In this document: piece after piece, positions 2,612-29,086 of the stretch | Layout of the letters: every line of letters starts with the position of its first letter | Position numbering within the stretch: the stretch's first letter is position 1 | Sequence record: DRR723986_4969 | DNA length: 64,000 nucleotides | Strand: one strand, 5' to 3' | Notes under the pieces: model-generated | Databases searched by the model: none | The model's input: the letters and a program-made list of their open reading frames with translations, nothing else | Told to the model about the DNA's origin: nothing | Program-made: the position numbers and the translations under genes

Positions 2612-2614
2612 CTC

Positions 2615-3841: not shown

Positions 3842-3846
3842 CGTGA

Positions 3847-4575
3847 TTACTCTGCGGATTCGGTCGCGACCAGCTTCCAGTTCGGATCGCGGGATGTGGT
3901 GTCCCGGGCGAAGGTCCAGATGTCGATCACTTCGCTTACCTTGGCCGGATCGCCGTCGACCACTTCACCGGCCTTGTCGCGCGTGGCGGAAATCAGCTGG
4001 CTGTGGATCTTCACGGTTACCTGGGCGGTCGAATTCTTCAGTGCAGCTTCGACGATTTCGGCCTTGTCGATGCCGACAAAGGTCGATTCGATGGTCTCGC
4101 CACGCTTTTCGCGATCGTCGATTGCGGTGACGAAGCCTTCATAGACTTCGCGGGACAGAAGGTTCTTCAGCGCTTTCTTGTCGCCGTCCGCAAACGCCAT
4201 CACGATCATCTCGTAGGCGGCGCGTGCGCCTTCCAGGAAAGGTTCCGGCTCGAAGCTGCGGTCAACGGACAGGATTTGCTTCAGGGCGCTGTTCAATGCG
4301 GAGCCCGCCGGGGCAACCTTGTCGATCACGACGTCGCCACCACGACCGCTCTCCTCGACCGGCTCGGCCTCCAGCGTGGTCTGGTTCGGCATCGGGATGA
4401 CATTGTCCTGATCGTTGCCGTTTTTGCGTTCGCGCGGCTGATCGGGCTTGGAATAGGGGTCGAATGGCGGGCGCTCATTGCCGGTGCGTTTGCCCAGCAC
4501 CGATCGCAGTCTGAACAGAATGAAAACCGCAAGTCCCATCAGGAGGAGGTTCAACGGGTCAAAAATCTCGTTCAT
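3847..4575 (-). CDS. Tim44/TimA family protein
   Basis: N-terminal TM followed by RLRSVLGKRTG; FLEGARAAYEMIV; C-terminal DIWTFAR...PNWKL. Confidence 0.92.
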   Translation of the reverse strand: MNEIFDPLNLLLMGLAVFILFRLRSVLGKRTGNERPPFDPYSKPDQPRERKNGNDQDNVIPMPNQTTLEAEPVEESGRGGDVVIDKVAPAGSALNSALKQILSVDRSFEPEPFLEGARAAYEMIVMAFADGDKKALKNLLSREVYEGFVTAIDDREKRGETIESTFVGIDKAEIVEAALKNSTAQVTVKIHSQLISATRDKAGEVVDGDPAKVSEVIDIWTFARDTTSRDPNWKLVATESAE

Positions 4576-4813
4576 CGTAACTTCCGGTTACCCTTTTTGA
4601 GGCCCTAGAGCCGCCTGCTCCAACTGCCAGGTGAGCGCAGCCTCGTACGCAAGGCCTGTCTGCTTCCTATTTAAGGGGTCCTTGAACCAGCATCCAGACC
4701 CAAGAGCAAGACTGAATCTTTGCATTCATAGCCATTTCGTGACTGCCTGCTCGCATTTTTGCGAGTGAATGTCTACCTTAGGTCCGAATAGCTTATCAGA
4801 CGATGGAGCTCCC

Positions 4814-5326
4814 GTGGGACTTTATATCATTGCCGCAATTCTTCTTCTGCCCCTGATCGAGATTGCGATGTTCATCTGGGTGGGAGGCTTGATCGGTGTG
4901 TTCCCGACAATCCTGCTGACGGTGATCACCGCGTTGGCCGGGACAGTGATGCTGCGCCAGCAGGGCCTGTCACTGCTGATGCGCATGCAAACGGAGCTGG
5001 ATGCCGGCCGCACACCCGGAAACGAGGTGATGCAGGGTGCAATGATCGTTCTTGCCAGCATTCTGCTGCTGATCCCGGGTTTCGTCACGGATGCCATCGG
5101 CCTGCTCCTGTTCATACCGCCGGTGCGCGAAGCGCTGGCGCGGTTCATCATTGCCCGATCGAACGTCGTTATCGTCGATGGCGGCGGCGGTATGCGCCGG
5201 CCGGATGACGGCGTCGTGGATCTGGACGAAGGCGACTGGAGCGAAAAAAACAGCGGCACGGGTGGTGGCTCCGGCCAGCCGAAGCTCAGCCCCTGGCAGG
5301 ATGGCTCTGATAACGCGAAGCCCTGA
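4814..5326 (+). CDS. fxsA: FxsA family membrane protein
   Basis: PLIEIAMFIWVG...LLLIPGFVTDAIG; divergent from tim44; GTG start after GGAG. Confidence 0.9.
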   Translation: MGLYIIAAILLLPLIEIAMFIWVGGLIGVFPTILLTVITALAGTVMLRQQGLSLLMRMQTELDAGRTPGNEVMQGAMIVLASILLLIPGFVTDAIGLLLFIPPVREALARFIIARSNVVIVDGGGGMRRPDDGVVDLDEGDWSEKNSGTGGGSGQPKLSPWQDGSDNAKP

Positions 5327-5444
5327 TTTTCCAAACGCTCACTAAAACGTGACTGCTGGTGTATGCGTAAAATTTACCAGTCAAGGTTATGTATGCGCTG
5401 AATTGGACCCGAAACCGGACTGAAGCGGAGCAGGCAGCGGGAGA

Positions 5445-6476
5445 ATGAGCGCCAGGCGTGTAGATTGGGTGGATACCGCCAAGGGCATCTGCATCATCTT
5501 CGTCGTGATGATGCATTCGGTGCTCGGCGTGGAAGCCGCCGCTGGCCAGACAGGCTGGATGCATGTGGTCGTCGCCTTTGCAGCCCCCTTCCGCATGCCG
5601 GATTTTTTCCTGATCTCCGGCCTGTTCCTGTCGAACGTCATTACCCGCGACTGGAAACTCTATCTTGATCGCAAGGTCGTCCACTTTGCCTACTTTTATG
5701 TGCTGTGGATGACGATCCAGTTTTTGGTGAAAGCGCCCGTCTTCATCGAGGAGACCAGCGTTCGCGAAACGGTGGAACTTTATTTCCTGAGTTTCATCGA
5801 GCCCTTCGGTACCTTGTGGTTCATCTACATGCTGCCGGTCTTCTTCATCGTGTCGAAGGTCGCCCACGACAAGGGTGTGCCTTGGCAACTGGTTCTGGCC
5901 GTCGGCGCACTTCTGCAGATCGCGCCGATCCACACCGGCTGGCTGCTGGTCGATGAATTCGCTGCCCGTTTCGTTTTCTTCTATGCCGGCTTCGTTTTTG
6001 CTCCGCAGATCTTCGCCCTGGCCGACTGGGCGCGCGAGCGGATCGGGATCAGTCTCGCGTGTCTGCTGGTCTGGGGCCTGGTGAACGGCACGCTGGTCTA
6101 TGCCGGCTGGGCGCATCTGCCGGTCATTGCCCTTGTTCTAGGCGCGGCCGGTGCAGGTGCCATCATCCTCACGAGCGCGTTGATCGTGAAATGGGGTCGG
6201 CTCGGTTTCCTCCAGCATTTCGGCGAAAACTCGATCGTCATCTATCTCGCCTTCTTCTTCCCCATGGGCGTGACGCGGGTGATTCTGCTGAAGCTGGGCA
6301 TCCTTGATATCGGCACAACGTCGTTGATCGTGACGCTGGTTGCGTCGGTCAGTCCGATGATCCTGTTCTGGCTGATCCGCCGCACGAACATCGGCTGGTT
6401 CCTGTTCCGCAGGCCCGCCTGGGCCTATCTCAGCGGAACCTTTGGCGGGAAACGTCAGGCACAGGCAGCTGAGTGA
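5445..6476 (+). CDS. Acyltransferase-3 family membrane protein
   Basis: RVDWVDTAKGICIIFVVMMH, FRMPDFFLISG, LWFIYML; about 10 TM helices. Confidence 0.88.
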   Translation: MSARRVDWVDTAKGICIIFVVMMHSVLGVEAAAGQTGWMHVVVAFAAPFRMPDFFLISGLFLSNVITRDWKLYLDRKVVHFAYFYVLWMTIQFLVKAPVFIEETSVRETVELYFLSFIEPFGTLWFIYMLPVFFIVSKVAHDKGVPWQLVLAVGALLQIAPIHTGWLLVDEFAARFVFFYAGFVFAPQIFALADWARERIGISLACLLVWGLVNGTLVYAGWAHLPVIALVLGAAGAGAIILTSALIVKWGRLGFLQHFGENSIVIYLAFFFPMGVTRVILLKLGILDIGTTSLIVTLVASVSPMILFWLIRRTNIGWFLFRRPAWAYLSGTFGGKRQAQAAE

Positions 6477-6543
6477 TCGGCAAGCTTGGAATTTTTAACT
6501 TTAGGACTTTTCTCCAGAACAGGCTGCGGGCATGATCCGCGCC

Positions 6544-9522
6544 ATGTCGACGCAAAGCACCTCCTCCGCCCTCACCGCCGATGACCATCTCATCCTGGTC
6601 GACGGGTCCACGTTCATATTTCGCGCCTATCACGCGCTGCCGCCGCTGACGCGCAAGCCGGACGGGCTTCCTGTCGGGGCGGTTTCTGGCTTCTGCAACA
6701 TGCTGTGGAAGCTGCTGCAGGAAGGCCTGACACCGGAGGAAGGCGACGAGCCCACCCATTTCGCGGTGATCTTCGACCATTCCGCGCAGACATTCCGGAA
6801 CGAGATTTATCCGGAATACAAGGCCCACCGGCCGGACCCGCCGGAAGATCTGGTGCCGCAGTTCGGTCTTATCCGCGAAGCGACACGCGCCTTTTCGGTT
6901 CACTGCATCGAGCAGGAAGGCTTCGAGGCGGACGACCTGATCGCGACCTATGCCCGTGAGGCTGCCGAACAGGGCGCGCGCGTCACCATCGTTTCAGGCG
7001 ACAAGGACCTGATGCAGTTGATCGGCCCGAAGGTGGGCATGATCGACACCATGAAGAACAAGACCTTCGGCGAAGCCGAGGTGTTCGAGAAATTCGGCGT
7101 CGGTCCCGACAAGGTCATCGAGGTGCAATCGCTGGCGGGCGACAGCGTCGATAACGTGCCCGGCGTGCCGGGTATCGGTCTGAAGACCGCGGCCCTCTTG
7201 ATCAATGAATTCGGCGATCTGGAAACGCTGCTCGCCAAGGCCGACACGATCAAACAGAACAAGCGCCGGGAAAACCTGATCGAATTTGCCGATCAGGCGC
7301 GAATTTCCAGGCAGCTCGTGACCCTCAAGCAGGATGTGCCGGTCAAGGTGCCGGTGGGCGAATTGTCGGTTACAGATGTTGACGGACCCAAGGCGCTCGG
7401 CTTCCTGAAGGCGATGGGGTTCACCACCCTCACCCGGCGCGTTGCGGATGTGACCGGTGCCGATCTGGATACGGTCGATGCATCGGACCTCAAGGTTCCG
7501 GGATGGGATGTTCCGGACCACAAGGGCCGGATGATGGAGCGCACAGCCGGCAGTGACAGCGCGGGTTCGGAAGCTGCAAAAACCCCGGGCGACGCTGATC
7601 CGGACAACTCCGGCCTGCTGGTACCGCAGACCGTTGCCGATGCACGCGCCCAGACGATCCGGGCGATCCCGGTCGACAGCAGCGCCTATGAAACCGTCAC
7701 CAGCCTCGACCGCTTGAAGGAATGGTGCGACGCGGCCTTTGAAAAGGGCTACGTCGCCTTCGACACCGAAACGACATCGCTGGACGCCATGCAGGCAGAG
7801 CTTGTCGGTGTTTCGCTGTCCACCGAGCCCGGCAAGGCCTGTTATGTGCCGCTTGGCCACGTCGACGGCGAGGGTGATCTTCTTGGCGGTGGCGGTCTTG
7901 TCGAAGGCCAGATCCCGCTGAAAGACGCGCTGGAAGTGCTGAAGCCGATGCTGGAGGACCGTTCGGTTCTCAAGATCGCGCAGAACCTCAAGTACGACTG
8001 GCTGGTGATGACACGGTACGGTGTCGACATCACGCCGTACGACGACACGATGCTGCTGTCCTACACGGTCGATGCCGGCAAGGGCGGCAACGGCATGGAC
8101 GAACTGTCCGAGCGCTGGCTCGATCACAAGCCGATCCCGTTCAAGGAAATCTGCGGCTCCGGCAAGTCGATGATCACCTTCGACAAGGTCGCCATCGACA
8201 AGGCAACCGCCTATGCGGCGGAAGACGCCGATGTGACGCTTCGTCTCTGGCTGATCCTGAAGCCGAGGCTCGCTTCCGAACGTATGGCGACCGCCTACGA
8301 GACGCTGGAACGGCCGATGGTGCCGGTGCTTGCGCGCATGGAAAAGCGCGGCATCTCCGTCGACCGTCAGATGTTGTCGCGCCTTTCGGGTGAATTCGCG
8401 CAAGGCATGGCGGGCAAGGAAGCCGAGATTTACGAGCTTGCCGGTGAAAGCTTCAACATCGGTTCGCCCAAGCAGCTTGGTGATATCCTGTTCGGCAAGA
8501 TGGGTCTTCCCGGCGGCAAGAAGACAAAGACCGGCGCCTGGTCGACTTCGGCGCAGGTTCTGGAAGATCTGGCCGCGGAAGGGCACGAACTGCCGTCGCG
8601 GATCGTTTCCTGGCGCCAGCTTTCCAAGCTGAAATCCACCTACACCGACGCCCTGCCCGGTTACATCAATCCGGAAACGGGGCGTGTGCACACATCCTAC
8701 GCGCTGGCGGCAACCACCACCGGGCGCCTGTCCTCGTCGGAACCGAACCTGCAGAATATCCCGGTTCGGACCGAGGAAGGCCGCAAGATCCGCAAGGCCT
8801 TCATCGCCGAAAAGGGTCACAAGCTGATCTCGGCCGACTACAGCCAGATCGAGCTGCGCGTCCTGGCGCATATGGCCGATATTCCTCAGTTGAAGAAGGC
8901 GTTCGATGACGGGCTGGACATTCACGCCATGACGGCAAGCGAAATGTTCGGTACGCCGATCGAAGGCATGGACCCGATGGTCCGCCGCCGGGCGAAGGCG
9001 ATCAACTTCGGCATCATCTACGGCATTTCCGCATTCGGCCTCGCCAACCAGCTCGGCATCTCGCGCGGCGAAGCGGGCGACTATATCAAGACCTATTTCG
9101 AGCGTTTCCCGGGCATCAAGGACTACATGGAAGCGACCAAGAAGCAGGTTCATGCGAACGGCTACGTGACCACGATCTTCGGCCGCAAGGCGCATTATCC
9201 GGAAGTGAACACCAAGAACCCGAACATGCGCGCCTTCTATGAACGCGCCGCCATCAACGCCCCGATCCAGGGGTCTGCCGCGGATATCCTGCGCCGGGCG
9301 ATGGTGCGTATGGAAAACCGGCTGGAAGGCTCAAAGCTGGATGCGCAGATGCTGCTGCAGGTGCATGACGAACTGATCTTCGAAGTGCCGGACGCGCAGG
9401 TGGAATCCACCATTCCGGTGATCAGGGACGTGATGGAAAATGCCTGCGATCCGGCGCTGAAACTTTCCGTGCCGCTTCAGGTCGATGCCCGCGCCGCCGA
9501 CAATTGGGACGAAGCGCATTAG
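6544..9522 (+). CDS. polA: DNA polymerase I
   Basis: 5'-3' exonuclease (LVDGSTFIFRAYHA), 3'-5' exonuclease (FDTETT), polymerase motifs ADYSQIELR, AKAINFGIIYG, LQVHDEL. Confidence 0.99.
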   Translation: MSTQSTSSALTADDHLILVDGSTFIFRAYHALPPLTRKPDGLPVGAVSGFCNMLWKLLQEGLTPEEGDEPTHFAVIFDHSAQTFRNEIYPEYKAHRPDPPEDLVPQFGLIREATRAFSVHCIEQEGFEADDLIATYAREAAEQGARVTIVSGDKDLMQLIGPKVGMIDTMKNKTFGEAEVFEKFGVGPDKVIEVQSLAGDSVDNVPGVPGIGLKTAALLINEFGDLETLLAKADTIKQNKRRENLIEFADQARISRQLVTLKQDVPVKVPVGELSVTDVDGPKALGFLKAMGFTTLTRRVADVTGADLDTVDASDLKVPGWDVPDHKGRMMERTAGSDSAGSEAAKTPGDADPDNSGLLVPQTVADARAQTIRAIPVDSSAYETVTSLDRLKEWCDAAFEKGYVAFDTETTSLDAMQAELVGVSLSTEPGKACYVPLGHVDGEGDLLGGGGLVEGQIPLKDALEVLKPMLEDRSVLKIAQNLKYDWLVMTRYGVDITPYDDTMLLSYTVDAGKGGNGMDELSERWLDHKPIPFKEICGSGKSMITFDKVAIDKATAYAAEDADVTLRLWLILKPRLASERMATAYETLERPMVPVLARMEKRGISVDRQMLSRLSGEFAQGMAGKEAEIYELAGESFNIGSPKQLGDILFGKMGLPGGKKTKTGAWSTSAQVLEDLAAEGHELPSRIVSWRQLSKLKSTYTDALPGYINPETGRVHTSYALAATTTGRLSSSEPNLQNIPVRTEEGRKIRKAFIAEKGHKLISADYSQIELRVLAHMADIPQLKKAFDDGLDIHAMTASEMFGTPIEGMDPMVRRRAKAINFGIIYGISAFGLANQLGISRGEAGDYIKTYFERFPGIKDYMEATKKQVHANGYVTTIFGRKAHYPEVNTKNPNMRAFYERAAINAPIQGSAADILRRAMVRMENRLEGSKLDAQMLLQVHDELIFEVPDAQVESTIPVIRDVMENACDPALKLSVPLQVDARAADNWDEAH

Positions 9523-18259: not shown

Positions 18260-18298
18260 CAGCGTTGACCGTGACACCGCGAGGGATTGTCTGACGCA

Positions 18299-19423
18299 AT
18301 GACAGCAGACGTCATCATCATCGGCGGCGGTGTTGCCGGGCTGAGCGCGGCCTGTTTTCTGTCCGAGTTTGCGCAAGTGACGCTTCTGGAGCGCGAGCCG
18401 GCGCTGGCAACGCAGTCTTCAGCCCGCACGGCAGGGCATTTCACGGCCGGCATTTCCGCCAACACAATGCGCGCACTGGCCGCGGCAAGCCGTGCGTTCT
18501 TTCAGGTGCCGCCGCCGGGATTTTGCGAGCAGACGCTTGTCGTGCCCCGCGGCTGCCTGACGGTTGGGCGTGAGGAGCATCGGCCTGTTCTGGAGAAGCT
18601 GATGGCAAGGCTGCAGGAGGCCGGGTCGGACTGCCGGTTTGTTGACAGACAAGAGGCTTTGGCCCTGTTTCCGGCCCTCCGGCCGGAACGGGTTCATGCG
18701 GGAGTTTTCGAAGCAGATGCGATGGATATCGATGTCGATCTGCTGCTGCAATCCTATCGCAAGGCGGCTGCTGCCAATGGCGCTCGCTTCGTCTGCAAGG
18801 CGGAAGTCACTTCCATCCGGCGGATTGCCGACACATGGCAGGTGACGGCCGGAGACCGGACGCTTTCGGCACCCGTTCTGGTCAACGCGGCCGGGGCCTG
18901 GGCGGACCGGGTTGCGGATCTTGCCGGTGTCCCGGCGCTTGGCCTCAAGGCCTTTCGCCGTTCGGCCTTCACGTTTCCGCTTCACCGTCAGGACGCCGGT
19001 GTCTGGCCACATGTTACGACGGCTGATTACACCTGGTACGTCCATCCGCAGCCGCACGGCTTCACGGCGTCACCGGCAGAGGCTGATCCAGTTTCTCCGG
19101 GAGAGGTTTATGCAGATGATCTTCGCCTTGCAGAGGCGATCCATCATATCGGCATCGACACCGAGCTGGCCGCGCCGCGTCCATCCGCAAGCTGGGCAGG
19201 ATTGCGCACGTTTGCGCCTGACCGAAACCCAGTCTGCGGCGGATTTCCCGATCATCCGGGTTATTTTGTCAGCGCAGGCCAGGGCGGATGCGGGGTTCTG
19301 ACATCCCCGGCGATGGGCAGGGCACTGGCGGCCCTCGTTGCCGGCCGGGACTTGCCGGGTGATCTGTCCGCCTGCGGTATCACACAGGACCAGCTTGCAC
19401 CCGGACGGTTCCTGCAGGCCTGA
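18299..19423 (+). CDS. FAD-dependent oxidoreductase (D-amino-acid oxidase / DauA-like family)
   Basis: IIGGGVAG, VNAAGAWAD, WAGLRTFAPDRNPVCG, GQGGCG. Confidence 0.88.
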   Translation: MTADVIIIGGGVAGLSAACFLSEFAQVTLLEREPALATQSSARTAGHFTAGISANTMRALAAASRAFFQVPPPGFCEQTLVVPRGCLTVGREEHRPVLEKLMARLQEAGSDCRFVDRQEALALFPALRPERVHAGVFEADAMDIDVDLLLQSYRKAAAANGARFVCKAEVTSIRRIADTWQVTAGDRTLSAPVLVNAAGAWADRVADLAGVPALGLKAFRRSAFTFPLHRQDAGVWPHVTTADYTWYVHPQPHGFTASPAEADPVSPGEVYADDLRLAEAIHHIGIDTELAAPRPSASWAGLRTFAPDRNPVCGGFPDHPGYFVSAGQGGCGVLTSPAMGRALAALVAGRDLPGDLSACGITQDQLAPGRFLQA

Positions 19424-19521
19424 GCTTCTTCATTTGACAAAGACGGCAATTTCCAGGAAAAAATTCCTCAAGCCAGTCGGGGTTCGGCAAGCCAGATAAC
19501 CTGTAATGCCGGAGATACCCC

Positions 19522-20445
19522 TTGCGTTTTCTATTCAGCCTTTGTTTTTGCGCAGCCCTGTTGCCAACCTTGTTGCCCGGCGCCCTGTCCGCTGCCGAGA
19601 TTACCCATGCCATGGGCACCACCGAGGTGCCGGACACTCCGCAGAAGATTGTCGTTCTCACCAACGAAGGCACCGAGGCAATGCTCATGCTGGGCAAGAC
19701 GCCTGTTGGGGCTGCGTCATCCTGGTATGGCGATCCCTGGTACCCGCATCTGGGCGACCGGATGGCCGGAGTTGAAGTTGTGGGGACGGAGCTTGCGGTC
19801 AACCTGGAACGGCTGGCCATGCTCGAGCCGGATCTGATCCTCGGCAGCAAGAAGCGGCACGAGGAAATCTATCCTCAGCTCTCCGCCATTGCGCCCACGG
19901 TGTTTGTGGTCAATGCCACGGATTTCAAGGACAACATGAAGCTCTATGCCAGCTCGGTCGGCATGGAAGCGGAAGGCGAAGCGCTCGTCAGCGCCTATGA
20001 GGCCGACGTTGCCCGGTTGCGCGCCGCCCTCGGCGAGAATGCCGGCGACACGGTTTCCGTCGTCCGTTTCGTGCCCGGCCAGCTTTACGTTTATCGCCAT
20101 GACAGTTTCTCCGGTGTTGTACTGAACGACATCGGTTTCAAGCGGCCCGAGGTACAGGCGCAGGACGGTCTGGCTCTTGCCGTCGGCAAGGAAAGCATCC
20201 CGAACATGGAAGCCGACCGGATGTTCTACCTGACATATGACACCGGCAATGGAGAGGGCACGGCCCTGGAGGGCGAGACTCTGAAAGACCCTCTCTGGGC
20301 CAATCTGGAAGTCGTCAAGGCGGGAAACGCCCACAAGGTCGATGACGGTGTCTGGGCGACGTCGCAGGGCATTCTTGCAGCCCGCGCAATGCTTCGGGAC
20401 ATCGCCCGGATCTACGGGACGGATGTCGACCTCAGTTCCAACTGA
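19522..20445 (+). CDS. Iron-siderophore ABC transporter substrate-binding protein
   Basis: Signal peptide, ITHAMGTTEVPDTPQKIVVL, NLERLAMLEPDLILG, LSAIAPTV. Confidence 0.9.
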   Translation: MRFLFSLCFCAALLPTLLPGALSAAEITHAMGTTEVPDTPQKIVVLTNEGTEAMLMLGKTPVGAASSWYGDPWYPHLGDRMAGVEVVGTELAVNLERLAMLEPDLILGSKKRHEEIYPQLSAIAPTVFVVNATDFKDNMKLYASSVGMEAEGEALVSAYEADVARLRAALGENAGDTVSVVRFVPGQLYVYRHDSFSGVVLNDIGFKRPEVQAQDGLALAVGKESIPNMEADRMFYLTYDTGNGEGTALEGETLKDPLWANLEVVKAGNAHKVDDGVWATSQGILAARAMLRDIARIYGTDVDLSSN

Positions 20446-20463
20446 ACTCCTGTGAGGCAACAG

Positions 20464-20492
20464 GGCCCGGATCAAAAGTTTTGACCCGGGCC
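20464..20492 (+). terminator. Stem-loop after siderophore-binding protein gene
   Basis: GGCCCGGATCAAAA / TTTTGACCCGGGCC inverted repeat (1 mismatch). Confidence 0.5.
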
Positions 20493-20733
20493 ACCTTGCC
20501 ATCCCGAGCGTCTGGCACGGAGCAGAAATGATTGCCGGAACGAAGAAATACAACCCGGTCACCAAATTAGGTTGTATTTCAAAAGGATGCCGTCACACCA
20601 CCGTGACGGACAACGGCCGGAAACCTTCCCTTCCCTGAAAATAAGAGCTAGCCTTACGTAAGGTAATTAAACGCATCGGCAGTTGAAGAGCCGGTCCATG
20701 CGTTTGACCCACCAACGCGAGAGGGCGGGCTGA

Positions 20734-23193
20734 ATGGCCTCGAGAGAACCGGCACGGCCGGGCATATCGGAAACCGGTGGAGACGCGGGGCTGATCGACA
20801 GCATCGCCCGTACCAATGCCGAGGCCATTTGCACGGTTCCCGGTCTGGCGCGACGCCCACAGCACCCGAAACACCACGGCTGTGTCCGCGCCCGCTTCAG
20901 TATCGGCGAAGTGCCAGAGGACTTGCGTCACGGTCTCTTCGCCTTACCGGGCACATATGACGCCCTTGTCCGGTTTTCCAACGGCCGCCAACTGGATGAC
21001 CGGAAGCGGGACGCCCACGGCATGGCCATCAAGGTGCTGGGCATCGACAGGGAGTGGCTGTCGGCTGAAAACCCGGACGGCAGGGTGCAGGACTTCATTC
21101 TCGTCGACCATGAAACCTTTTTCACCGGTGACCTCGGCGACTACGACGACATCAACACCCTGGTGCTGAAACGCGGTCTTGCCCGCCTGAAGCCCTTGTC
21201 CCGGCTTCTGTTCACCGGCTTCTATCTCTTCGGCAGGATCCGGGCCTTTGTCTCTCATCGCCCCGTGTCTCCGCTTGCAAGCCGATACTTCAGCACCACG
21301 CCTTATCGGCTTGGCGATCTTCTGGTGAAATATACCGCAACGCCAAGGCCGGTGCCGGTGGATCCGCCTGAGGTCAAATCCGGACGCGATCAATTGGCCG
21401 TCGCGCTGAGGGAAACCCTGATCCGTTGCCCGGTCACTTTTGAATTCGGCGTCGATGTTCAGATAGATCCGGCCACGCAGCCGGTTGATGATCCGTCGAT
21501 TGCCTGGTCGGCGGTGCCGGGCGCGCGTCACGAAAAGCTGGCGACGCTGGAAATCTTTCAGCAGGACGTCGATCAACACGCCCCACTGGCGGAGAACATC
21601 GCCTTTTCACCCTGGAACAGCCTGCCGGCGCACGAGCCCGTCGGCGCCATCAACCTTGTCCGGCGACAAGCCTACGAGAGTGCCGCTTGCAAGCGGCATG
21701 AAGTCAATGGCGTTGTTCCACCCGTCTTTGCCGGCATTCCGGAAAGCTACAAGATGCAACAACCATCCGTATCGCCCAGAAACGACGGCATGCCGCTTTG
21801 GTTGGCGATTGTCGCCGCGCTGCTGCTGATTGCCTGCCTGGTCCTGGAAGGCAAGCGCCTCACCATCAAGCCGGGTCCGCCACAAACCTTTGACAATCCG
21901 GTCGCCGAATTCAAATACGGTTCCATCGGCGCCGAATGGGACGGTTTCCCCTATATGGTCTGGCGCGAACTGCCGGCAATTTTCAAGGACGAGCTGCCCG
22001 AAGGCTGGCGCACATTCGGCTTCATCGAGGAACCGGGACAGGAACTTCCGATCGGCTTCAGCATCCGGCGCGTCGGTGTGCCGAGGGTCGGCTTCAATTG
22101 CGCCACCTGCCACAGCGTGGAGGTCACCGCCGGCGGCAACACCATGTTGTTGCTGGGTGCACCTGCCGAAAAGCTCGATATCCAGTCCTACATCCTGTTC
22201 CTTGGCTACGTTGCCGCAAGCGACAAGCTGACGGCGGATGCGGTGATCGAAAGCGCCGCGCAGGCCGGCAGACCTCTGGGGCCAATCGACCGTCTGCTGG
22301 TGCGCACCATTCTTGTCCCCGGCATCAAGGACCAGGCCGATGGACTGGCGACCGCTTTCAGCTGGATGAAGGTGAAACCGCAGCATGGCCCTGGGCGCAC
22401 GGACGCGGGCAACAACTGGCGCGCGCGCTGGGGCTATGGCCCGGAAAAGGACGAGGCGGTCGGAACGGTCGACTTTCCCTCGGTCTGGAACCAGGGCATC
22501 CGCGAGGGGGGCTGGTTCCACTGGGACGGCAACAACAATTCGCTGATCGAGCGCAACTATTCCGCCGCCCTTGCCGGCGGCGCCAAGGAATGGCTGCTGC
22601 AACGCGGGCTGATCGATGCCCAGGCGGAATGGCTGCGGGACCTGCCGCCGCCCGCCTACCCCTTGCCAGTCAATGCTGACATGGCAGCAGACGGCGCCGC
22701 GATATACGAAAGGGAAGGCTGCGGCACGTGTCATGACCCAGAAGGCGAGAGCTTCGGGCAGGTCACGCCGCTTTCGGACCTTCAGACAGACCCGGCACGA
22801 TCTGACCTCTTCGACGATGCCTTCGTCAGCCGCTTCGGCGATGTCGGCAAGGGGTACACCTGGCGGTTCTCGCACTACCGGGCAACGGACGGCTATGCAA
22901 ACACGCCGCTGGACGCCATCTGGGCACGCGGGCCCTATCTCCACAATGGTTCCGTGCCGACGCTTCGGGCGCTTTTGTCACCGCCGGAAGACCGTCCGGC
23001 GACCTTCTATCGCGGCTGCACGGATTTCGATCCGGTGGACGTCGGCTTTGCCTGCGAAAGTGGCTTCCTGTTCGACACGCAGCTGACCGGCAACGGCAAT
23101 GGTGGACATCTTTACGGCACCGGTCTTCCGGACGGCGAGAAATCCGCACTGATCGAATATCTCAAATCCAAGCAATATGCGGGGCGGTCATGA
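20734..23193 (+). CDS. Fusion: catalase-related haem domain + TM helix + di-haem cytochrome c (RoxA/MauG-like) domain
   Basis: N-half: RRPQHPKHHGCV, VRFSNG, GMAIKV, QDFILV, FSPWNSLPAHEPVGAINLVRRQAY. TM: PLWLAIVAALLLIACLVL. C-half: FKYGSIG, CATCH, CGTCH, PYLHNGSVPTL. Confidence 0.85.
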   Translation: MASREPARPGISETGGDAGLIDSIARTNAEAICTVPGLARRPQHPKHHGCVRARFSIGEVPEDLRHGLFALPGTYDALVRFSNGRQLDDRKRDAHGMAIKVLGIDREWLSAENPDGRVQDFILVDHETFFTGDLGDYDDINTLVLKRGLARLKPLSRLLFTGFYLFGRIRAFVSHRPVSPLASRYFSTTPYRLGDLLVKYTATPRPVPVDPPEVKSGRDQLAVALRETLIRCPVTFEFGVDVQIDPATQPVDDPSIAWSAVPGARHEKLATLEIFQQDVDQHAPLAENIAFSPWNSLPAHEPVGAINLVRRQAYESAACKRHEVNGVVPPVFAGIPESYKMQQPSVSPRNDGMPLWLAIVAALLLIACLVLEGKRLTIKPGPPQTFDNPVAEFKYGSIGAEWDGFPYMVWRELPAIFKDELPEGWRTFGFIEEPGQELPIGFSIRRVGVPRVGFNCATCHSVEVTAGGNTMLLLGAPAEKLDIQSYILFLGYVAASDKLTADAVIESAAQAGRPLGPIDRLLVRTILVPGIKDQADGLATAFSWMKVKPQHGPGRTDAGNNWRARWGYGPEKDEAVGTVDFPSVWNQGIREGGWFHWDGNNNSLIERNYSAALAGGAKEWLLQRGLIDAQAEWLRDLPPPAYPLPVNADMAADGAAIYEREGCGTCHDPEGESFGQVTPLSDLQTDPARSDLFDDAFVSRFGDVGKGYTWRFSHYRATDGYANTPLDAIWARGPYLHNGSVPTLRALLSPPEDRPATFYRGCTDFDPVDVGFACESGFLFDTQLTGNGNGGHLYGTGLPDGEKSALIEYLKSKQYAGRS

Positions 23194-25274
23194 GGCTTAG
23201 CGCATCCTTCAAGGGAACGTTTCTCGACATCATCTGCCTGCTCGTTGGGACGATCATGGCCTATCGCGGTGTCGAGGAATTCTTCCGCTACGATTTCGAT
23301 CCGATACACATGGTCCTCGGGCTGGCGCTGGGGGCCGGTGCCTATGCCAACTGGCTTATGTTCCGGCGGCTGCGCATCGGCTACTGGATCTTCATCGGCG
23401 GCAATGTGGTCGTCGCCTTTGTGTTCATATTCGTGCTGCAGGATGTCTGGCACCACCACGTCTGGCCACATATCCTCTATGCCCTGGTGTTCGTGCCGTT
23501 CCTGGATCAGCTCGGCGCCCGTTCCGAGAGGGACGTTCTGCGGGATCCGCCGGTGCACAAGCGGATCCTCGGTTTCATCGGCGGCCAGGCACTGAAACTG
23601 GCCGAGGCCTTTCCCGCCCTCGTCCGGCTGGTCAAGCGTTGCGGTCCGCTCAGCCGGGTGATCAACCGTCTTGTCATCAACGGCATCTCGAACGCGCCTC
23701 CCGGCCGTCCGCTCCCGCTCTCCCTCTGGACGCCGCATGACCCGGAAACGCATCTGGAAATGGTTGCGGGCCCAAAGGATCCGGAAAAGACCACCAGCAC
23801 CTTCGCCAGCTGGCCGGGTCTGGTTGACCGCCGCTACACCGGCCGGCACCTGCCACCCGTCGATCAGGATTTTGTCGATGCCCTGCCGGAAGTGCCGAGG
23901 GTGGCGGAACTTTACCGGCGCAAGGCGATGGTCGAGAGCGACACCAGCACGCTGTTCTGCTTCTTTGCCCAGTGGTTCACCGACAGTTTCCTGCGCACTC
24001 ATCCGCTGAACAAGCGGCTGAACACCTCGAACCACGAAATCGATCTTTGCCAGATCTATGGTCTTGGCGAGGAAACCACCTCGTTTTTACGGGAAGGCGC
24101 TTTTCTGAAGTCCCGGCAGACGCCCGTCGGCGAGCTGCCACCGCTGCTCGCGGGCCCGGATCTGGCAGTCAAAGCGGAGTTTGCCGGCATTCACTTCATG
24201 CCCATGTGGGCAACGACCTTCCTGGGGGCCGATCCGGAATGGGGCGCTGCGAAAAAACTTCGGGAACTCCTGGCTGGTATCGGGGATTGGGCCGTCACGC
24301 CGGAGCGCTGGAAATGCCACTATGCGGCCGGCCTGGAACGGGCCAATTCCACGATCCTCTACAGCGCGCTCAACACGATCTTCCTGCGCGAGCACAATCG
24401 TCTCGCGCGTGAGATCGGCAAACGGAACCCGCACTTCGGTCCGGACCGCATCTTCGAAACGGCCCGCAACATCAACATCGTCAAGCTGCTCAAGGTTATC
24501 ATCGAGGACTATATCAACCACCTTGCCAATTCGCCGTTCAAGATCTTCGTGGAGCCTGGCGATGCGGACAAGCGCCTGTGGTACCGCACCAACCGGATCT
24601 CGCTGGAATTCGACCTGCTTTACCGCTGGCATGCCATGGTTCCGGATCGGTTCCTGTTCCAGGGCGAGGTACTGGAAAACGAAAATTTTCGCTTCAACAA
24701 CACGATCATCGAAAAACACGGCGTCGAGGCGGTCATCGATGCGGCGGCGAGCCAGCGGGCAGGCAAGCTGACACTCCACAACACCCCGTTCTTCCTGCAA
24801 GGCGCGGAAGAACGCACGCTGGCATTTGCCCGCAGGTTCCGGCTCGCCCCCTTCAACGCCTACCGCGCCTCCTGGAAGCTGCGTCCGTACGACAGTTTCC
24901 TGGAACTGACCGGAGGCGACGCCGGTCTGGCGGGAGAGCTGGAAGCACTCTATCCCGACTGGAACGGCGTGCGCGGCATCGATCGGGTCGATCTTCCCAT
25001 CGGACTGCTGGCCGAAGACCAGATGCGGGCGCGCCCGCTACCGCCCCTGCTTCTGGCCATGGTCGGGTCCGACGCCTTCTCCCAGGCACTCACCAACCCG
25101 CTTCTGGCAAAGAATATCTTCGGTCCGGAGGTCTTCACCGAGTATGGCATGACGGAAATCGAGGCGACGTCCACCTTCCAGAACATTGTCGATCTCAACG
25201 TTGCCGCCAACGCCAGAAGGCCGAATGCGAATTTCACCATCAACAAGGACACGCTTCTGACCTGGCCAGGCTGA
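23190..25274 (+). CDS. Peroxidase-cyclooxygenase superfamily haem protein (PGHS/fatty-acid dioxygenase-like) with N-terminal TM segments
   Basis: FFAQWFTDSFLRT, EIDLCQIYG, FLREHNRL, KVIIEDYINHL, NRISLEFDLLYRWHAMVPD, FNAYR...PYDSFLELTG; ATGA overlap with upstream gene. Confidence 0.9.
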   Translation: MRLSASFKGTFLDIICLLVGTIMAYRGVEEFFRYDFDPIHMVLGLALGAGAYANWLMFRRLRIGYWIFIGGNVVVAFVFIFVLQDVWHHHVWPHILYALVFVPFLDQLGARSERDVLRDPPVHKRILGFIGGQALKLAEAFPALVRLVKRCGPLSRVINRLVINGISNAPPGRPLPLSLWTPHDPETHLEMVAGPKDPEKTTSTFASWPGLVDRRYTGRHLPPVDQDFVDALPEVPRVAELYRRKAMVESDTSTLFCFFAQWFTDSFLRTHPLNKRLNTSNHEIDLCQIYGLGEETTSFLREGAFLKSRQTPVGELPPLLAGPDLAVKAEFAGIHFMPMWATTFLGADPEWGAAKKLRELLAGIGDWAVTPERWKCHYAAGLERANSTILYSALNTIFLREHNRLAREIGKRNPHFGPDRIFETARNINIVKLLKVIIEDYINHLANSPFKIFVEPGDADKRLWYRTNRISLEFDLLYRWHAMVPDRFLFQGEVLENENFRFNNTIIEKHGVEAVIDAAASQRAGKLTLHNTPFFLQGAEERTLAFARRFRLAPFNAYRASWKLRPYDSFLELTGGDAGLAGELEALYPDWNGVRGIDRVDLPIGLLAEDQMRARPLPPLLLAMVGSDAFSQALTNPLLAKNIFGPEVFTEYGMTEIEATSTFQNIVDLNVAANARRPNANFTINKDTLLTWPG

Positions 25275-25390
25275 TATCCCTGGCCGGGCTTCCCCGCTGC
25301 ACAAGCTTTACGAACGCAGAATTGCGCCGGCAAAATTTGCAAAGCCTGCCCGAAAGGCTATCGTGAAGTGCTGTGTCAAGGGAGGATGAC

Positions 25391-27151
25391 ATGCGCGACC
25401 TTGAACATGTGAGTGAAATCGACCGCGTATTGAAGGGGTACGAGACCGGCAGGGATGGGCTGGTGTCGGAAAGCTGGCGGCGCTGTGTCCAGACGTACGG
25501 CATGGATCCGGCGCGTCCGGAACCGGCACATATCGTCACCGAGCAGCAACTGCGCGAACATCAGGAGCAGTCCGAGCGGTTGATCGCGACGGCTCGTTCC
25601 GGCCTGCGCACCCTGTTCAAGCAGGTGGCCGGGCACAACTACGTACTGCTGCTGGCCGATGCCAAGGGTGTGTGCGTCGACTTCTTCGGCGATCCGCGGT
25701 TCGAGGACGATCTCCGGCAGGCGGGCCTTTATCTCGGGTCCGACTGGTCTGAGGATCTTGCGGGAACCTGCGGTGTCGGCTCCTGCATCGTGACGGGGGA
25801 AGCCGTCACGATCCACCAGAGCGATCACTTCGGGCTGTCGCATACACCGCTGTCCTGTACGGCGGCCCCCATCTACGACACCTGCGGCAAGCTGGCGGCG
25901 GTTCTGGATATTTCCCTCCTGCGCTCCCCAAGCCCTAAATCGAGCCAGAACCTCGCGATGAACCTGGTGAAGGCTTCCACCCGCCGGGTCGAGATGGCCA
26001 ACCTGATGGCGACCACGCGCAAGGAATGGGTCTTGCGCTTCTCGACATCGCCGGAGTTTCTGGAAGTCGATCCGGAAGCCGCCATCGCCCTGGACGACAG
26101 CGGACGGATAACGGGAATGACGCACGGTGCGCTCGCCTGTCTGGCCCCGACCGGCTCTACAGACCTCATAGGAAGCCGGATCGACATGTACCTGGACCTG
26201 GATGTCGACGATCTGCCGTCCCTGATGCGAGGCCGCCCGGCGGAAGATCGGGTTCTGCGCCGGCGCGACGGTGGTGGGTTATACGGTCATGCCATCGCTC
26301 CGCAAGCCGCTCGCATGGCACGCAGCCCCGTTTCCGGGACCTTGCCCACGCCGCTGCGCGGCATCTGCGGGCAGGATGCGACGCTGTCGCAGGTGGTGTC
26401 GAAAGTTGCCCGGCTTGCACCAACGCAGGTTCCCATCCTGCTGTCTGGTGAAACCGGAACGGGCAAGGAATATCTGGCAAGAGCCATCCATGTTCTGGGT
26501 CCGGCCGACCGGTCGTTCCATACGCTCTGCTGTTCCGCCCTGAAACCGGAAAAGGTCGGCGCCTTGTCTGATGCTGCAGCCGGAACGCTGTTCCTGCGTG
26601 GGATCGAAGATCTTGACGTGGCGGGCCAGGCTGCCTTGCTTGCCTTGCTGGAACATCGAAGTGACCTTCGCGTGGTCGCCACCACGCGGCAGGATCCGGC
26701 AGGTTCCACAAGCATCCGCGCACTGCGGCCGGAACTTTATTTCAGGCTTGCCGGGTCTCTCATCCGGATCCCGCCGCTCCGGCATCGCCAGGATTTCGAC
26801 TGGCTGGTCGATCGCCTGTTGCGACGCTCTCCGCGGGACCTGCGCCTGTCACCTTCGGCACGCGCCGAACTCAGCGGCCGGCATTGGCCGGGCAACATCC
26901 GTGAACTCGCGACCTTGCTGGATGTCGCGACAGCGCTTGCAGAAACCGATGTGATCGACCTTACCGATCTGCCGCAGGCGTCTTTGTCCAGACGCGTCGA
27001 AACCGACCCGAAACAGGATCTGGAAGCACTTCTGGACGCCTGTGGCTGGAACATGTCCCAGGTCGCCCGAAGGCTTGGCGTCAATCGGTCGACGGTGCTC
27101 CGGCGGATGCGCTCTCTCGGCCTGGAGCCACACCCCAAGCCGCGTGCATGA
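25391..27151 (+). CDS. GAF-AAA+-Fis HTH regulator (AcoR-like), degenerate AAA+ domain
   Basis: ESWRRC, WSEDLAGTCGVG, CTAAPIYD (GAF); GETGTGKE; HWPGNIREL; WNMSQVARRLGVNRSTVLRRM; no GAFTGA. Confidence 0.9.
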   Translation: MRDLEHVSEIDRVLKGYETGRDGLVSESWRRCVQTYGMDPARPEPAHIVTEQQLREHQEQSERLIATARSGLRTLFKQVAGHNYVLLLADAKGVCVDFFGDPRFEDDLRQAGLYLGSDWSEDLAGTCGVGSCIVTGEAVTIHQSDHFGLSHTPLSCTAAPIYDTCGKLAAVLDISLLRSPSPKSSQNLAMNLVKASTRRVEMANLMATTRKEWVLRFSTSPEFLEVDPEAAIALDDSGRITGMTHGALACLAPTGSTDLIGSRIDMYLDLDVDDLPSLMRGRPAEDRVLRRRDGGGLYGHAIAPQAARMARSPVSGTLPTPLRGICGQDATLSQVVSKVARLAPTQVPILLSGETGTGKEYLARAIHVLGPADRSFHTLCCSALKPEKVGALSDAAAGTLFLRGIEDLDVAGQAALLALLEHRSDLRVVATTRQDPAGSTSIRALRPELYFRLAGSLIRIPPLRHRQDFDWLVDRLLRRSPRDLRLSPSARAELSGRHWPGNIRELATLLDVATALAETDVIDLTDLPQASLSRRVETDPKQDLEALLDACGWNMSQVARRLGVNRSTVLRRMRSLGLEPHPKPRA

Positions 27152-27155
27152 CTAT

Positions 27156-27183
27156 CTGTTGCGTCCTGTTGCGCGCGCAACAG
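27156..27183. promoter_or_regulatory. Putative operator of the AcoR-like regulator
   Basis: Perfect 18-bp palindrome CTGTTGCGCGCGCAACAG (27166-27183) preceded by a direct-repeat half-site CTGTTGCG (27156-27163). Confidence 0.55.
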
Positions 27184-27286
27184 CAAACGGAGTTTCTGCC
27201 CCTTAACGTCATCAATTGACGGGCGTTCCATGGAAAAATGCGGGGGCGCTCTGCATTGTTTCCTCCATAAACAGGGAGGAACTGGA

Positions 27287-29086
27287 ATGCTCGACAAACC
27301 ATTGATTCACGAGACCGAGACTTTTCTCAACACTTTCGGCAAGGCGCTGGAAGACGGCAAGATCGATGCTGCAACGGACATGTTCCTGGACGATTGCTAC
27401 TGGCGGGACCTGATTGCCTTTACCTGGAACATCAAGACCGTCGAGGGCAAGGATCAGGTCCGCGACATGCTGGAAAAGCAACTGGCCTCCACGGGGCCGC
27501 GCAACTGGCGCATCGCGGAAGGTGAAATACCGACGAAAGAGGGCGATGTCGTCACGGCCTGGATTCAGTTCGATACCGAACGGGCCCGCTGCTTCGGCCT
27601 GATCCGGCTGAAGGGCGGCAAGATCTGGACCCTGCTGACAACCATGGCCGAGCTGAAGGGCCATGAGGAGCCGAAGGGCTTCAACCGGCCGCTGGGGGCC
27701 AAGCACGGCGCCAGCAAGCACCGCACCAGCTGGAAGGAGGAGCGCGAGCGTGAACTGGCGGACCTCGGTTACAAGACCCAGCCCTATTGCCTGATCATCG
27801 GTGGCGGCCAGGGCGGCATCGCGCTCGGCGCGCGCCTGAGGCAGCTCGGTGTGCCCACAATCATCGTGGAAAAGAATGACCGGCCCGGCGATAGCTGGCG
27901 CAACCGCTACAAGTCCCTCTGCCTTCACGATCCCGTCTGGTACGACCACCTGCCCTACATCAAGTTTCCGGAAAACTGGCCTATCTTCAGCCCCAAGGAC
28001 AAGATTGGCGACTGGCTGGAAATGTACACTAAGGTCATGGAACTGAACTACTGGACCCGGACCGTTGCCAAATCCGCAACTTACGACGAAACAAAGAAGG
28101 AATGGACAGTCGTCGTGGATCGTGACGGCGAGGAAGTAGTTCTGAAACCGAAACAACTGGTCATGGCAACCGGCATGTCGGGCAAGGCAAACGTTCCGAA
28201 ATTCCCCGGCATGGACACCTTCAAGGGCGACCAGCATCATTCTTCCAGACATCCGGGACCGGATCAGTATCGCGGCAAGAAGGCGGTCGTGGTCGGCTCC
28301 AACAATTCGGCGCACGATATCTGCGCGGCGCTTTGGGAAAATGATGTCGATGTGACCATGGTGCAGCGGTCCTCCACCCATATCGTGCGCTCGGACACCC
28401 TGATGGATGTTGGCCTCGGCGCGCTTTACTCGGAAGAGGCGGTCCGGTCCGGCGTGACGACGGAAAAGGCGGACCTGATCTTCGCCTCACTACCCTACCG
28501 GATCCTGCACGAGTTCCAGATCCCTGCCTATGCGGAGATGAAGAAGCGGGACGCGGACTTCTACGAAGGGCTGGAGAAAGCCGGGTTCTGGCTGGATTGG
28601 GGCGACGACGAAAGCGGCCTTTTCCTGAAATACCTGCGCAGGGGCTCCGGCTACTACATTGATATCGGCGCCAGCCAGCTGATCATCGACGGCGAGATCA
28701 AGCTGAAGCGTGGCCAGGTCACCGAGATCGTGGAAGACGGTGTCATTCTGGACGATGGCACGAAGCTGGAAGCGGACGTGATCGTCTATGCCACCGGCTA
28801 CGGTTCCATGAACGGCTGGGTTGCCGACCTGATGGGCCAGGACATGGCCGACAGGGTTGGCAAGGTCTGGGGCCTTGGTTCCGACACCACCAAGGACCCG
28901 GGGCCCTGGGAAGGCGAACAGCGGAACATGTGGAAACCGACCCAGCAGGAAGCGCTCTGGTTCCACGGTGGCAACCTGCACCAGTCACGCCATTACTCCC
29001 AGTATCTGGCGCTACAGCTGAAAGCGCGGATGGAAGGCCTGCCGACCCCGGTCTACGGCCTGCAGCAGGTCCATCACCTGTCCTGA
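27287..29086 (+). CDS. Flavin-containing monooxygenase with N-terminal SnoaL-like extension (type II FMO-like)
   Basis: [12 protein letters not shown]-terminal extension; [48 protein letters not shown]. Confidence 0.9.

Follow-up and report, generated by a model that had tools for sequence, protein, structure and literature searches.

A candidate membrane-bound oxylipin operon that couples a COX-like dioxygenase to a fusion of a catalase-related domain and a RoxA-like di-haem cytochrome c

To our knowledge, few bacterial oxylipin pathways have been characterized, among them the pair of a 10S-dioxygenase (10S-DOX) and a lyase from Nostoc and the oleate-diol synthase system of Pseudomonas aeruginosa, the products of which are reportedly cell-to-cell signals. 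The Nostoc punctiforme 10S-DOX, the one characterized bacterial enzyme of its kind, converts oleate and linoleate to 10S-hydroperoxides, and its product is cleaved by a catalase-related lyase encoded by a separate gene (a 2026 review, PMC13049297). The P. aeruginosa system consists of two periplasmic RoxA-related di-haem proteins with a PYFHNGSVP motif and a common axial-histidine pattern: the oleate 10S-dioxygenase PA2077 dioxygenates oleate and the 7,10-diol synthase PA2078 isomerizes the resulting hydroperoxide, which is toxic unless PA2078 is present (PMC4496055). Here we describe a two-gene operon of a marine Roseibium bacterium, at positions 20734-25274 of a 64,000-nucleotide stretch of the sequence record DRR723986_4969 (hereafter the window), which brings relatives of these enzymes together. 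On balance, its sequence features make it probable, by a modest measure, that the encoded proteins form an inner-membrane assembly of three haem enzymes with four haems, in which a fatty acid would be oxygenated and the hydroperoxide then converted. The component enzymes are already known; their fused, membrane-bound layout is most likely undescribed. Full-text literature searches, with most subscription journals lying outside the searched library, gave no account of this enzyme combination, in line with a preliminary description of the locus that did not know the arrangement as characterized. That description had read the locus as an oxylipin pathway of three domains on two proteins, a reading that the present analysis partly supports: the domain identities hold, and the modules number four, the N-terminus of gene 2 being a separate four-helix module.

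Gene 1 (20734-23193, plus strand) is an open reading frame (ORF) of 819 residues (protein P0001) that comprises a catalase-related domain, one transmembrane (TM) helix and a RoxA-like di-haem cytochrome c domain; its full-length homologues amount to 4 of 69 matches, the window's own protein counted. Gene 2 (23190-25274, plus strand), an ORF of 694 residues (P0002), joins a four-helix membrane module to a cyclooxygenase (COX)-like domain, a putative fatty-acid dioxygenase. The stop of gene 1 and the start of gene 2 share the letters ATGA at 23190-23193 (context ...ggtcATGAggc...), as had been noted earlier and as the sequence bears out.

The catalytic domain of gene 2 spans residues 171-694 (23700-25274, plus strand) and belongs to the peroxidase-cyclooxygenase superfamily, scoring 99 bits (cut-off 25; E 3.2e-28) with the Pfam family An_peroxidase (PF03098). 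Its best solved relatives in phmmer searches are COX-2 (5kir) and COX-1, with E-values from 3.5e-45 to about 1e-36, and lactoperoxidase and myeloperoxidase are far weaker, at about 1e-10 and worse. The motifs LREHNR, IEDY and EFDLLYRWH that the preliminary description had aligned by eye with prostaglandin H synthase are all present, and phmmer pairs each with the same motif of COX-2: EFDLLYRWH with EFNTLYHWH, which carries the catalytic tyrosine and the proximal histidine, and IIEDYINHL with IEDYVNHL, which carries the central tyrosine. The codons TAC CGC TGG CAT at 24621-24632 encode Y478-R-W-H481, so that the predicted catalytic Tyr478 (24621-24623) and proximal His481 (24630-24632) lie where they had been placed. 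Together with Tyr441 these are the equivalents of COX Tyr385, His388 and Tyr348, and they put the protein in the fatty-acid haem dioxygenase branch. The likeness to prostaglandin H synthase is, however, incomplete. The stretch FFAQWFTDSF pairs with COX-2 FFAQHFTHQF in such a way that Asp265 takes the position of the COX distal histidine, His207, F263-T-D265-S-F standing in place of F205-T-H-Q-F; Gln261 and Asp265 are encoded at 23970-23984, plus strand. Tyr441, Tyr478, His481 and Asp265 are invariant in all 13 aligned members of the clade, and among 128 relatives WFTDSF occurs in 95 and LYRWH in 126.

For the Nostoc 10S-DOX four motifs are published, namely F143tdsF (COX F205thqF), FxxxY342, IMxxY305 and I483GxDA487FxQ490A (PMC13049297). 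Gene 2 has a counterpart of each: WFTDSF at residues 262-267, F474xxxY478, IIEDY441 and, as the terminal substrate motif, V625GSDAFSQA at residues 625-633. Because its motifs match those of the Nostoc enzyme and an aspartate stands at the distal-histidine position, gene 2 is, as judged from these residues, a haem dioxygenase of the 10S-DOX type and not a prostaglandin H synthase.

Ahead of this domain lies a system-specific four-helix membrane module (residues 1-107; 23190-23510, plus strand), delineated by alignments A1 and A7 and by an AlphaFold model with helices at residues 5-33, 38-58, 62-82 and 87-100 and confidence scores (pLDDT) of 63-84. The gene 2 model was built from 13 sequences, has a mean pLDDT of 52.5 and is usable only for these N-terminal helices. 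A profile of the module finds 6 matches in 1.84 billion cluster representatives: a COX fusion of 689 residues, a stand-alone protein of 125 residues and four others of 65, 106, 175 and 219 residues. In one metagenome locus (L044) the module is its own 125-residue gene, directly upstream of the cytochrome gene. Within the WHHH patch of the module only Trp87 and His89 (23454-23456, plus strand) are invariant across genera. A multi-histidine metal or haem site in the module was considered and dropped, His89 being the sole invariant histidine once the Cognatishimia sequence was added. A linker (residues 108-170; 23511-23699, plus strand) follows, with helices predicted by AlphaFold at low to moderate confidence at residues 122-140, 142-150 and 152-168. 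By analogy with helices B-D of the Nostoc 10S-DOX (PMC13049297), this linker is possibly the counterpart of the COX membrane-binding helices.

Gene 1 begins with a catalase-related haem domain (residues 1-345; 20734-21768, plus strand). The preliminary description had called this a catalase fold, and the kinship is genuine, if remote: Pfam Catalase (PF00199) gives no match to P0001 at E<=0.1, and the single sequence finds no catalase in the PDB. A profile of the domain and its relatives (A4, 16 sequences), however, matches the mycobacterial catalase-related protein MAP-2744c (3e4w, E 7.8e-18), catalase 6pt7 (1.2e-10) and the allene oxide synthase from coral (1u5u, 6e-10), besides some 55 more catalase entries, and PF00199 is carried by relatives of residues 17-345, the protein from one divergent locus discussed below (L125) scoring 42 bits against a cut-off of 25. 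The residues expected of such a haem site are likewise present. Arg41 and His44 (20854-20865, plus strand) form an R-x-x-H that aligns with the distal motif of catalases, and Arg310 and Tyr314 (21661-21675, plus strand) have the spacing of the catalase proximal Arg/Tyr pair; Arg41 and Arg310 are invariant, His44 is invariant in alignment A2 and Tyr314 nearly so in both alignments. It is because of this profile and transitive evidence that we place gene 1 among the catalase-related haemoproteins.

The C-terminal part of gene 1 (residues 379-819; 21868-23190, plus strand) is, as the preliminary description had proposed, a di-haem cytochrome c domain; it is RoxA/FadCcp-like. It has two CXXCH motifs, CATCH at residues 456-460 (22099-22113) and CGTCH at 663-667 (22720-22734), the RoxA-like motif PYLHNGSVP at 734-742 (22933-22959), an instance of the PY-x-HNGSVP module, and a C-terminal axial histidine, all on the plus strand. 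It matches the Pfam family RoxA-like_Cyt-c (PF21419) with E 8.4e-15 and the NCBIfam model NF040606 with 184 bits against a cut-off of 150; the latter model finds no match in 14 control genomes. The sole informative solved relative is RoxA (4b2n, E 2.4e-10), in an alignment that spans PYLHNGSVP and the C-terminal GNGNGGH. His792 (23107-23109, plus strand), invariant in all 19 aligned relatives, aligns with the histidine of RoxA GGHDF, which is at chain position 641 by our count and which we take to be the second axial ligand of the C-terminal haem. When the AlphaFold model of P0031, a natural relative with 56% identity, was used in a fold search, RoxA was the sole significant PDB match (E 3.9e-10, TM-score 0.46). 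That model has a mean pLDDT of 77.5, with values of 37-49 over residues 81-150 (the fourth TM helix and linker), where helix packing is unreadable. Scores of 57-64 bits against cut-offs of 900-1000 for the RoxA, RoxB and RoxC NCBIfam equivalogs set the domain apart from the rubber oxygenases proper. The wider family goes under the name 'c-type cytochrome' in the databases, and P. aeruginosa is not named among the 120 best long relatives. Because PA2077 and PA2078 are RoxA-related fatty-acid enzymes, a fatty-acid role of such a domain has a direct precedent, and by analogy the 'extra' di-haem domain may be a third lipid enzyme.

The same domain admits of another interpretation, in which it serves as an electron entry of the CCP (cytochrome c peroxidase) type: electrons from periplasmic cytochrome c would reduce fatty-acid hydroperoxides to hydroxides, which would supply the peroxidase half-reaction lost by the COX-like enzyme and protect the outer leaflet. 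Asp265 in place of the COX distal histidine agrees with this, as do the membership of the domain in the CCP/MauG/RoxA superfamily and the need for a partner enzyme to deal with the toxic PA2077 hydroperoxide (PMC4496055). NF040606 is named 'di-heme cytochrome C peroxidase', yet that name is an annotation label; CCPs and MauG appear in the P0031 fold search, yet they trail RoxA with E-values of 0.02-2, and Pfam CCP_MauG is absent among the matches of gene 1 at E<=0.1. Moreover, the sole significant solved relative is a dioxygenase, and the hydroperoxide would arise in the cytoplasm, the very side that has the catalase-related domain to deal with it. We consider the CCP-type role unlikely.

The membrane anchoring of both proteins, which had likewise been proposed, is borne out by the hydrophobic segment of gene 1 and by the N-terminal helices of gene 2. 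P0001 has one strongly hydrophobic segment (residues 350-378; 21781-21867, plus strand; Kyte-Doolittle peak 2.8-3.1), situated between its two haem domains, and no N-terminal signal peptide precedes its catalase-related domain. This segment aligns with the N-terminal signal-anchor of stand-alone 460-residue cytochromes (MKK-hydrophobic-LEYKRLTIKPWP). The attachment of c-type haem takes place on the periplasmic side by the Ccm system, and for this reason the di-haem domain would be periplasmic, which, with a single TM helix, would leave the 345-residue catalase-related domain in the cytoplasm. The charges of the four-helix module (N-terminus +2; loop 1 -3; loop 2, with its RRLR, +3; loop 3 -1) fit an orientation with both termini inside, so that the COX-like domain would also be cytoplasmic. 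We infer that the catalase-related and COX-like domains lie at the cytoplasmic face and the di-haem domain in the periplasm, an opposite sidedness that would make this a membrane-spanning assembly rather than a simple soluble cascade. Two natural fusions described below, P0031 and the protein of locus L116, agree with this topology, the cytochrome TM helix following directly after the four-helix module in the first and after the COX domain in the second.

These assignments suggest the following scheme. Gene 2 would be a tyrosyl-radical dioxygenase of the Nostoc 10S-DOX type, held at the cytoplasmic face by its four-helix anchor, which would take an unsaturated fatty acid from the membrane and, lacking the distal histidine needed for efficient peroxidase turnover, release the hydroperoxide. 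The catalase-related domain of gene 1, tethered alongside by one helix, would then rearrange or cleave this hydroperoxide, with the activity of a lyase, allene oxide synthase or epoxy-alcohol synthase. From across the membrane, the periplasmic di-haem domain would work on that same pool of lipid, as a second oxygenase, as an isomerase comparable to the diol synthase, or as a peroxidase that clears hydroperoxide from the outer leaflet. In this scheme we infer the substrate, the products, the physical complex, the sidedness and the role of the di-haem domain. A bolder version is a membrane-spanning 'oxylipin metabolon', in which the four-helix module docks the COX-like enzyme and the mini-catalase to the periplasmic di-haem enzyme, with oxygenation inside, transbilayer hand-over and release outside. 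We hold this version to be possible and rather doubtful; were it true, a marine bacterium, of a genus often associated with algae, would be making a secreted lipid signal or allelochemical by vectorial synthesis. The preliminary description had suggested that the products could be signals or defence molecules toward eukaryotic partners.

That the four modules belong together is indicated by their distribution. A genome survey with the gene 2 alignment yielded 31 loci, five of which cover the N-terminal module: those of Roseibium aggregatum, Roseibium sp., Stappia sp., Cognatishimia sp. and Allosphingosinicella sp. All five have the catalase-like, TM-cytochrome, four-helix and COX modules in identical order, the catalase-like part being a separate gene in Allosphingosinicella; in the 26 loci with a soluble COX protein, the flanks examined contain none of the three partners. 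Several pairs of gene 1 and gene 2 matches also share the same longest-contig size (for example, 143167 in Mesorhizobium and 12494 in Jannaschia). In a tree of 127 COX domains, 19 anchored forms, 8 soluble catalase::COX fusions and 3 short fragments make up one clade with a support of 1.0, outside of which fall the forms fused to P450. The modules also form natural fusions in five other combinations, among them catalase::COX in 8 proteins; four-helix module and linker::TM::cytochrome in P0031 (610 residues, a cluster of 18 members), which is 36% identical to residues 3-164 of P0002 (E 3e-22); COX::TM::di-haem cytochrome in P0194 (locus L116); and cytochrome::catalase in P0046. The recurrence of such fusions argues that the four modules work as one unit, and together with the five loci it affirms the co-occurrence in other genomes on which the preliminary description had staked its reading; its parallel with Nostoc, where a COX-like dioxygenase is paired with a catalase-related enzyme, also holds.

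A second triad, divergent and soluble, is present both in another Roseibium genome (L125) and on a plasmid of Paracoccus yeei (L132). In it a RoxA-like cytochrome of about 620 residues with a signal peptide is accompanied by two further proteins, one catalase-related and the other soluble and COX-like, to which PGAP gives the names 'catalase family protein' and 'peroxidase family protein' on the plasmid. At L125 (G031:C1:3598000-3611000, 2355-9244) the components are a cytochrome of 624 residues, a protein of 692 residues with two catalase-like domains and the COX-like protein, and the triad is preceded by a 347-residue ORF with a GDSW motif, SGNH-lipase-like by eye and with no Pfam match. In other proteins the catalase-related domain is joined to domains of the SnoaL-like, patatin-like phospholipase, EfeB-named and GMC-oxidoreductase kinds and, in a eukaryote, to a lipoxygenase domain, and the RoxA-like domain to GMC oxidoreductase and Old Yellow Enzyme domains (P0060, P0061, P0064, P0070, P0071, P0259 and P0288). 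These fusions constitute a broad combinatorial set of lipid-oxidation modules.

Such associations bear on whether the substrate is a fatty acid at all. It could instead be an isoprenoid, a carotenoid, a quinone side chain or a secondary metabolite, with the likeness to oxylipin enzymes reflecting shared haem chemistry: the peroxidase-cyclooxygenase superfamily is chemically diverse, RoxA cleaves polyisoprene and not fatty acids, and an oxidoreductase of the DAO type, dependent on flavin adenine dinucleotide (FAD), is co-inserted with the operon. We judge this very unlikely, since the FTDSF helix, the central tyrosine and the GxDAFxQA motif match those of a fatty-acid dioxygenase, the catalase-like relatives include the fusions to patatin-like phospholipase and lipoxygenase, and the SGNH-like gene (by its GDSW motif, without a Pfam match) precedes the L125 triad.

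The closest named relatives of the window are of the Roseibium aggregatum group, with 91% protein and about 87% DNA identity and synteny over at least 15 kb. In a first sample of 61 genomes (37 of the genus and 24 of other families), a close full-length orthologue, 91-100% identical, is present in 2 and any match at E<=0.001 in 12. The whole region is found in 3 of 61 genomes in an even draw of the genus, and in an even draw of 400 other genomes of the class a single one has any COX-like match at E<=1e-20, of the soluble form. In genomes without the operon, homology ends at the end of a YifB-like gene (about 18263) and resumes at about 25357; the operon, with two upstream genes, therefore lies in a 7.1-kb accessory insert (18263-25357) between the YifB-like gene and a gene for a sigma-54 activator. 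In one genome (G478) these two flanking genes are 17 bp apart, and across other genomes of the genus the length of this site ranges between 17 bp and about 4.8 kb, which gives it the look of a variable insertion site. GC content is unremarkable, and no integrase or repeats were noticed, no search aimed at these having been made. Of the two upstream genes, the first is assigned by family to a DAO-family FAD oxidoreductase (18287-19423) and the second to a periplasmic binding protein of the iron-siderophore/haem type (19522-20445; Peripla_BP_2, of the Fe-dicitrate/haem type). No permease or ATPase genes adjoin the latter; on a Ruegeria conchae plasmid (L133) an iron ABC transporter adjoins a catalase and COX pair.

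The patchy distribution is what one would expect of a niche trait. An alternative is that the cassette is a defence or detoxification device against exogenous polyunsaturated fatty acids and lipid hydroperoxides, such as those from algae, rather than a route to a signal: toxic lipids entering the envelope would be oxygenated and then destroyed. Its insert occurs in 3 of 61 genomes of the genus and in none of the 400 others of the class and has no dedicated regulator or exporter, two of its three enzymes come from hydroperoxide-handling families, and enzymes would be present on both membrane faces. A dioxygenase that makes hydroperoxides would nonetheless be an odd first step in their removal, and defined oxylipins are what the closest characterized systems produce, in Nostoc by 10S-DOX and its lyase and in P. 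aeruginosa by the oleate-diol synthase. We regard detoxification as quite improbable and favour, in the measured terms given above, oxygenation of a fatty acid followed by conversion of its hydroperoxide.

Downstream of the operon (25373-29086) lie genes for a sigma-54-dependent activator (592 residues) and then a SnoaL-domain/flavin monooxygenase fusion (618 residues). Both were considered as members of the system and rejected: the pair is conserved in at least 11 operon-free genomes of the genus and, whether or not the haem operon is there, is kept at 72-77% DNA identity in many genomes of the genus. It probably forms a separate regulator-target pair. A promoter scan of the operon returned no sigma-70-like site, no convincing terminator follows gene 2, and a TGGCAC at about 20520, examined by eye as a sigma-54 promoter, has the wrong spacing. 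Contigs from all four RNA libraries examined, one from each of four studies, cover the operon at 95-99% identity, and two bridge the gene junction at 23190, which is suggestive of transcription, contigs alone being no proof of transcription or of a single transcript. In RNA run X1 the contig of the upstream binding protein has a depth of 783, about 48x that of the first operon contig (16), the operon contigs ranging over 16-52. A metagenome contig 96% identical to the window (L112) has the same operon with each module split over several frames, which suggests sequencing or assembly frameshifts or a decaying copy.

Several points weigh against the assembly that we favour. The members of its clade are known from sequences alone, the AlphaFold model of gene 2 is poor overall, and the catalase-related domain has no direct Pfam match. 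In the latter, Gln43 precedes the distal histidine and Asp125/His126 stand at the distal-asparagine position of catalases, by our reading of the profile alignment, so that its reaction type is not predictable from sequence. Membrane fatty acids in this group of bacteria are mostly monoenoic (cis-vaccenate). No gene for a lipase, for acyl activation or for transport is part of the cassette. In other genera the DAO-type oxidoreductase and the binding protein that are co-inserted here do not accompany the module, and its neighbours in Cognatishimia and Allosphingosinicella have nothing in common with the window's. For the COX::cytochrome fusion there is one database entry. In P0046 a signal sequence is followed by the di-haem domain and then, without an intervening TM helix, by the catalase-like domain, and sidedness would therefore differ between lineages. 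With two haem domains opposite the third across the membrane, direct channelling or electron transfer is hard to picture. Finally, in a survey anchored on the cytochrome, which took the 80 best metagenome loci (many on short contigs), a strong COX, catalase or four-helix partner occurs in 8, most distant RoxA-like cytochromes being unlinked to these, and a tandem second cytochrome occurs in 33. The link to COX and catalase is therefore specific to subclades of a much larger family.

Weak matches to the COX profile were seen in 5 of these 80 loci, and in one of them (L115) the match is a different An_peroxidase protein. The tandem pairs of RoxA-like paralogues (33 of 80, within L047-L119) have the layout of the P. 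aeruginosa PA2078-PA2077 operon, and oxylipin-type di-haem pairs may be widespread in soil bacteria. In two loci (L044 at 7403-8332 and L091 at 4081-4980) an ORF of 299-309 residues stands between the cytochrome and COX-like genes, where the catalase-like component would be expected; it has no Pfam match and no similarity to the catalase-like profile, and may be an alternative hydroperoxide-handling partner.

If the favoured reading is right, the operon would show how bacteria contain a toxic hydroperoxide, namely by tethering its maker to its converters; it would assign a function to the large unnamed family of RoxA-like 'c-type cytochromes', and lipid signalling by marine alphaproteobacteria would gain a defined candidate system. 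The natural fusions are ready-made constructs for biochemistry and structure determination.

Among known systems, the N. punctiforme pair resembles the window in the adjoining genes for a COX-like haem dioxygenase and a catalase-related protein and, as compared through its published motifs, in the FTDSF helix, the catalytic, central and proximal residues and the GxDAFxQA motif. It differs in that the Nostoc proteins are two soluble ones (10S-DOX having 542 residues), whereas here there are a membrane module, a fused di-haem domain and an alphaproteobacterial host. PA2077 and PA2078 ('FadCcp') are, by published motifs, alike to the di-haem domain in being periplasmic and in having two CXXCH motifs, the PY-x-HNGSVP module and a C-terminal axial histidine; they are a soluble or secreted tandem pair of about 630 residues each (PMC4496055), with no COX-like or catalase-like partners, whereas the window domain has about 440 residues, is predicted to be membrane-anchored and is fused to a catalase-related domain. 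RoxA is the sole significant solved relative of that domain by sequence and, through the 56%-identical P0031, by fold; the window domain is shorter, anchored and in another gene context, and because of the equivalog scores it is not a rubber oxygenase orthologue.

The coral allene oxide synthase-lipoxygenase fusion (1u5u, 3dy5) and MAP-2744c provide small catalase-fold haem domains that partner a fatty-acid dioxygenase, and the coral fusion shares the logic of keeping the hydroperoxide maker and its converter together. There, however, the partner is a lipoxygenase and here a COX-like protein, with an additional TM helix and di-haem domain, and the profile alignment has a threonine before the distal histidine in 1u5u, presumably Thr66, where the window domain has a glutamine. 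The dioxygenase-P450 fusions, which include the fungal linoleate diol synthases (Ppo) and bacterial forms of ~970 residues, likewise combine a COX-like dioxygenase with a second, hydroperoxide-converting haem enzyme, but this is a P450, where the window has catalase-related and di-haem domains; of the 127 related COX domains at least 22 are in proteins of P450-fusion length, many with PF00067, and a Sinorhizobium plasmid has P450 and COX as a split pair. Set beside these systems, the operon in the window joins the enzyme types of the Nostoc and P. aeruginosa pathways in two overlapping genes, with a predicted place at the two faces of the inner membrane.

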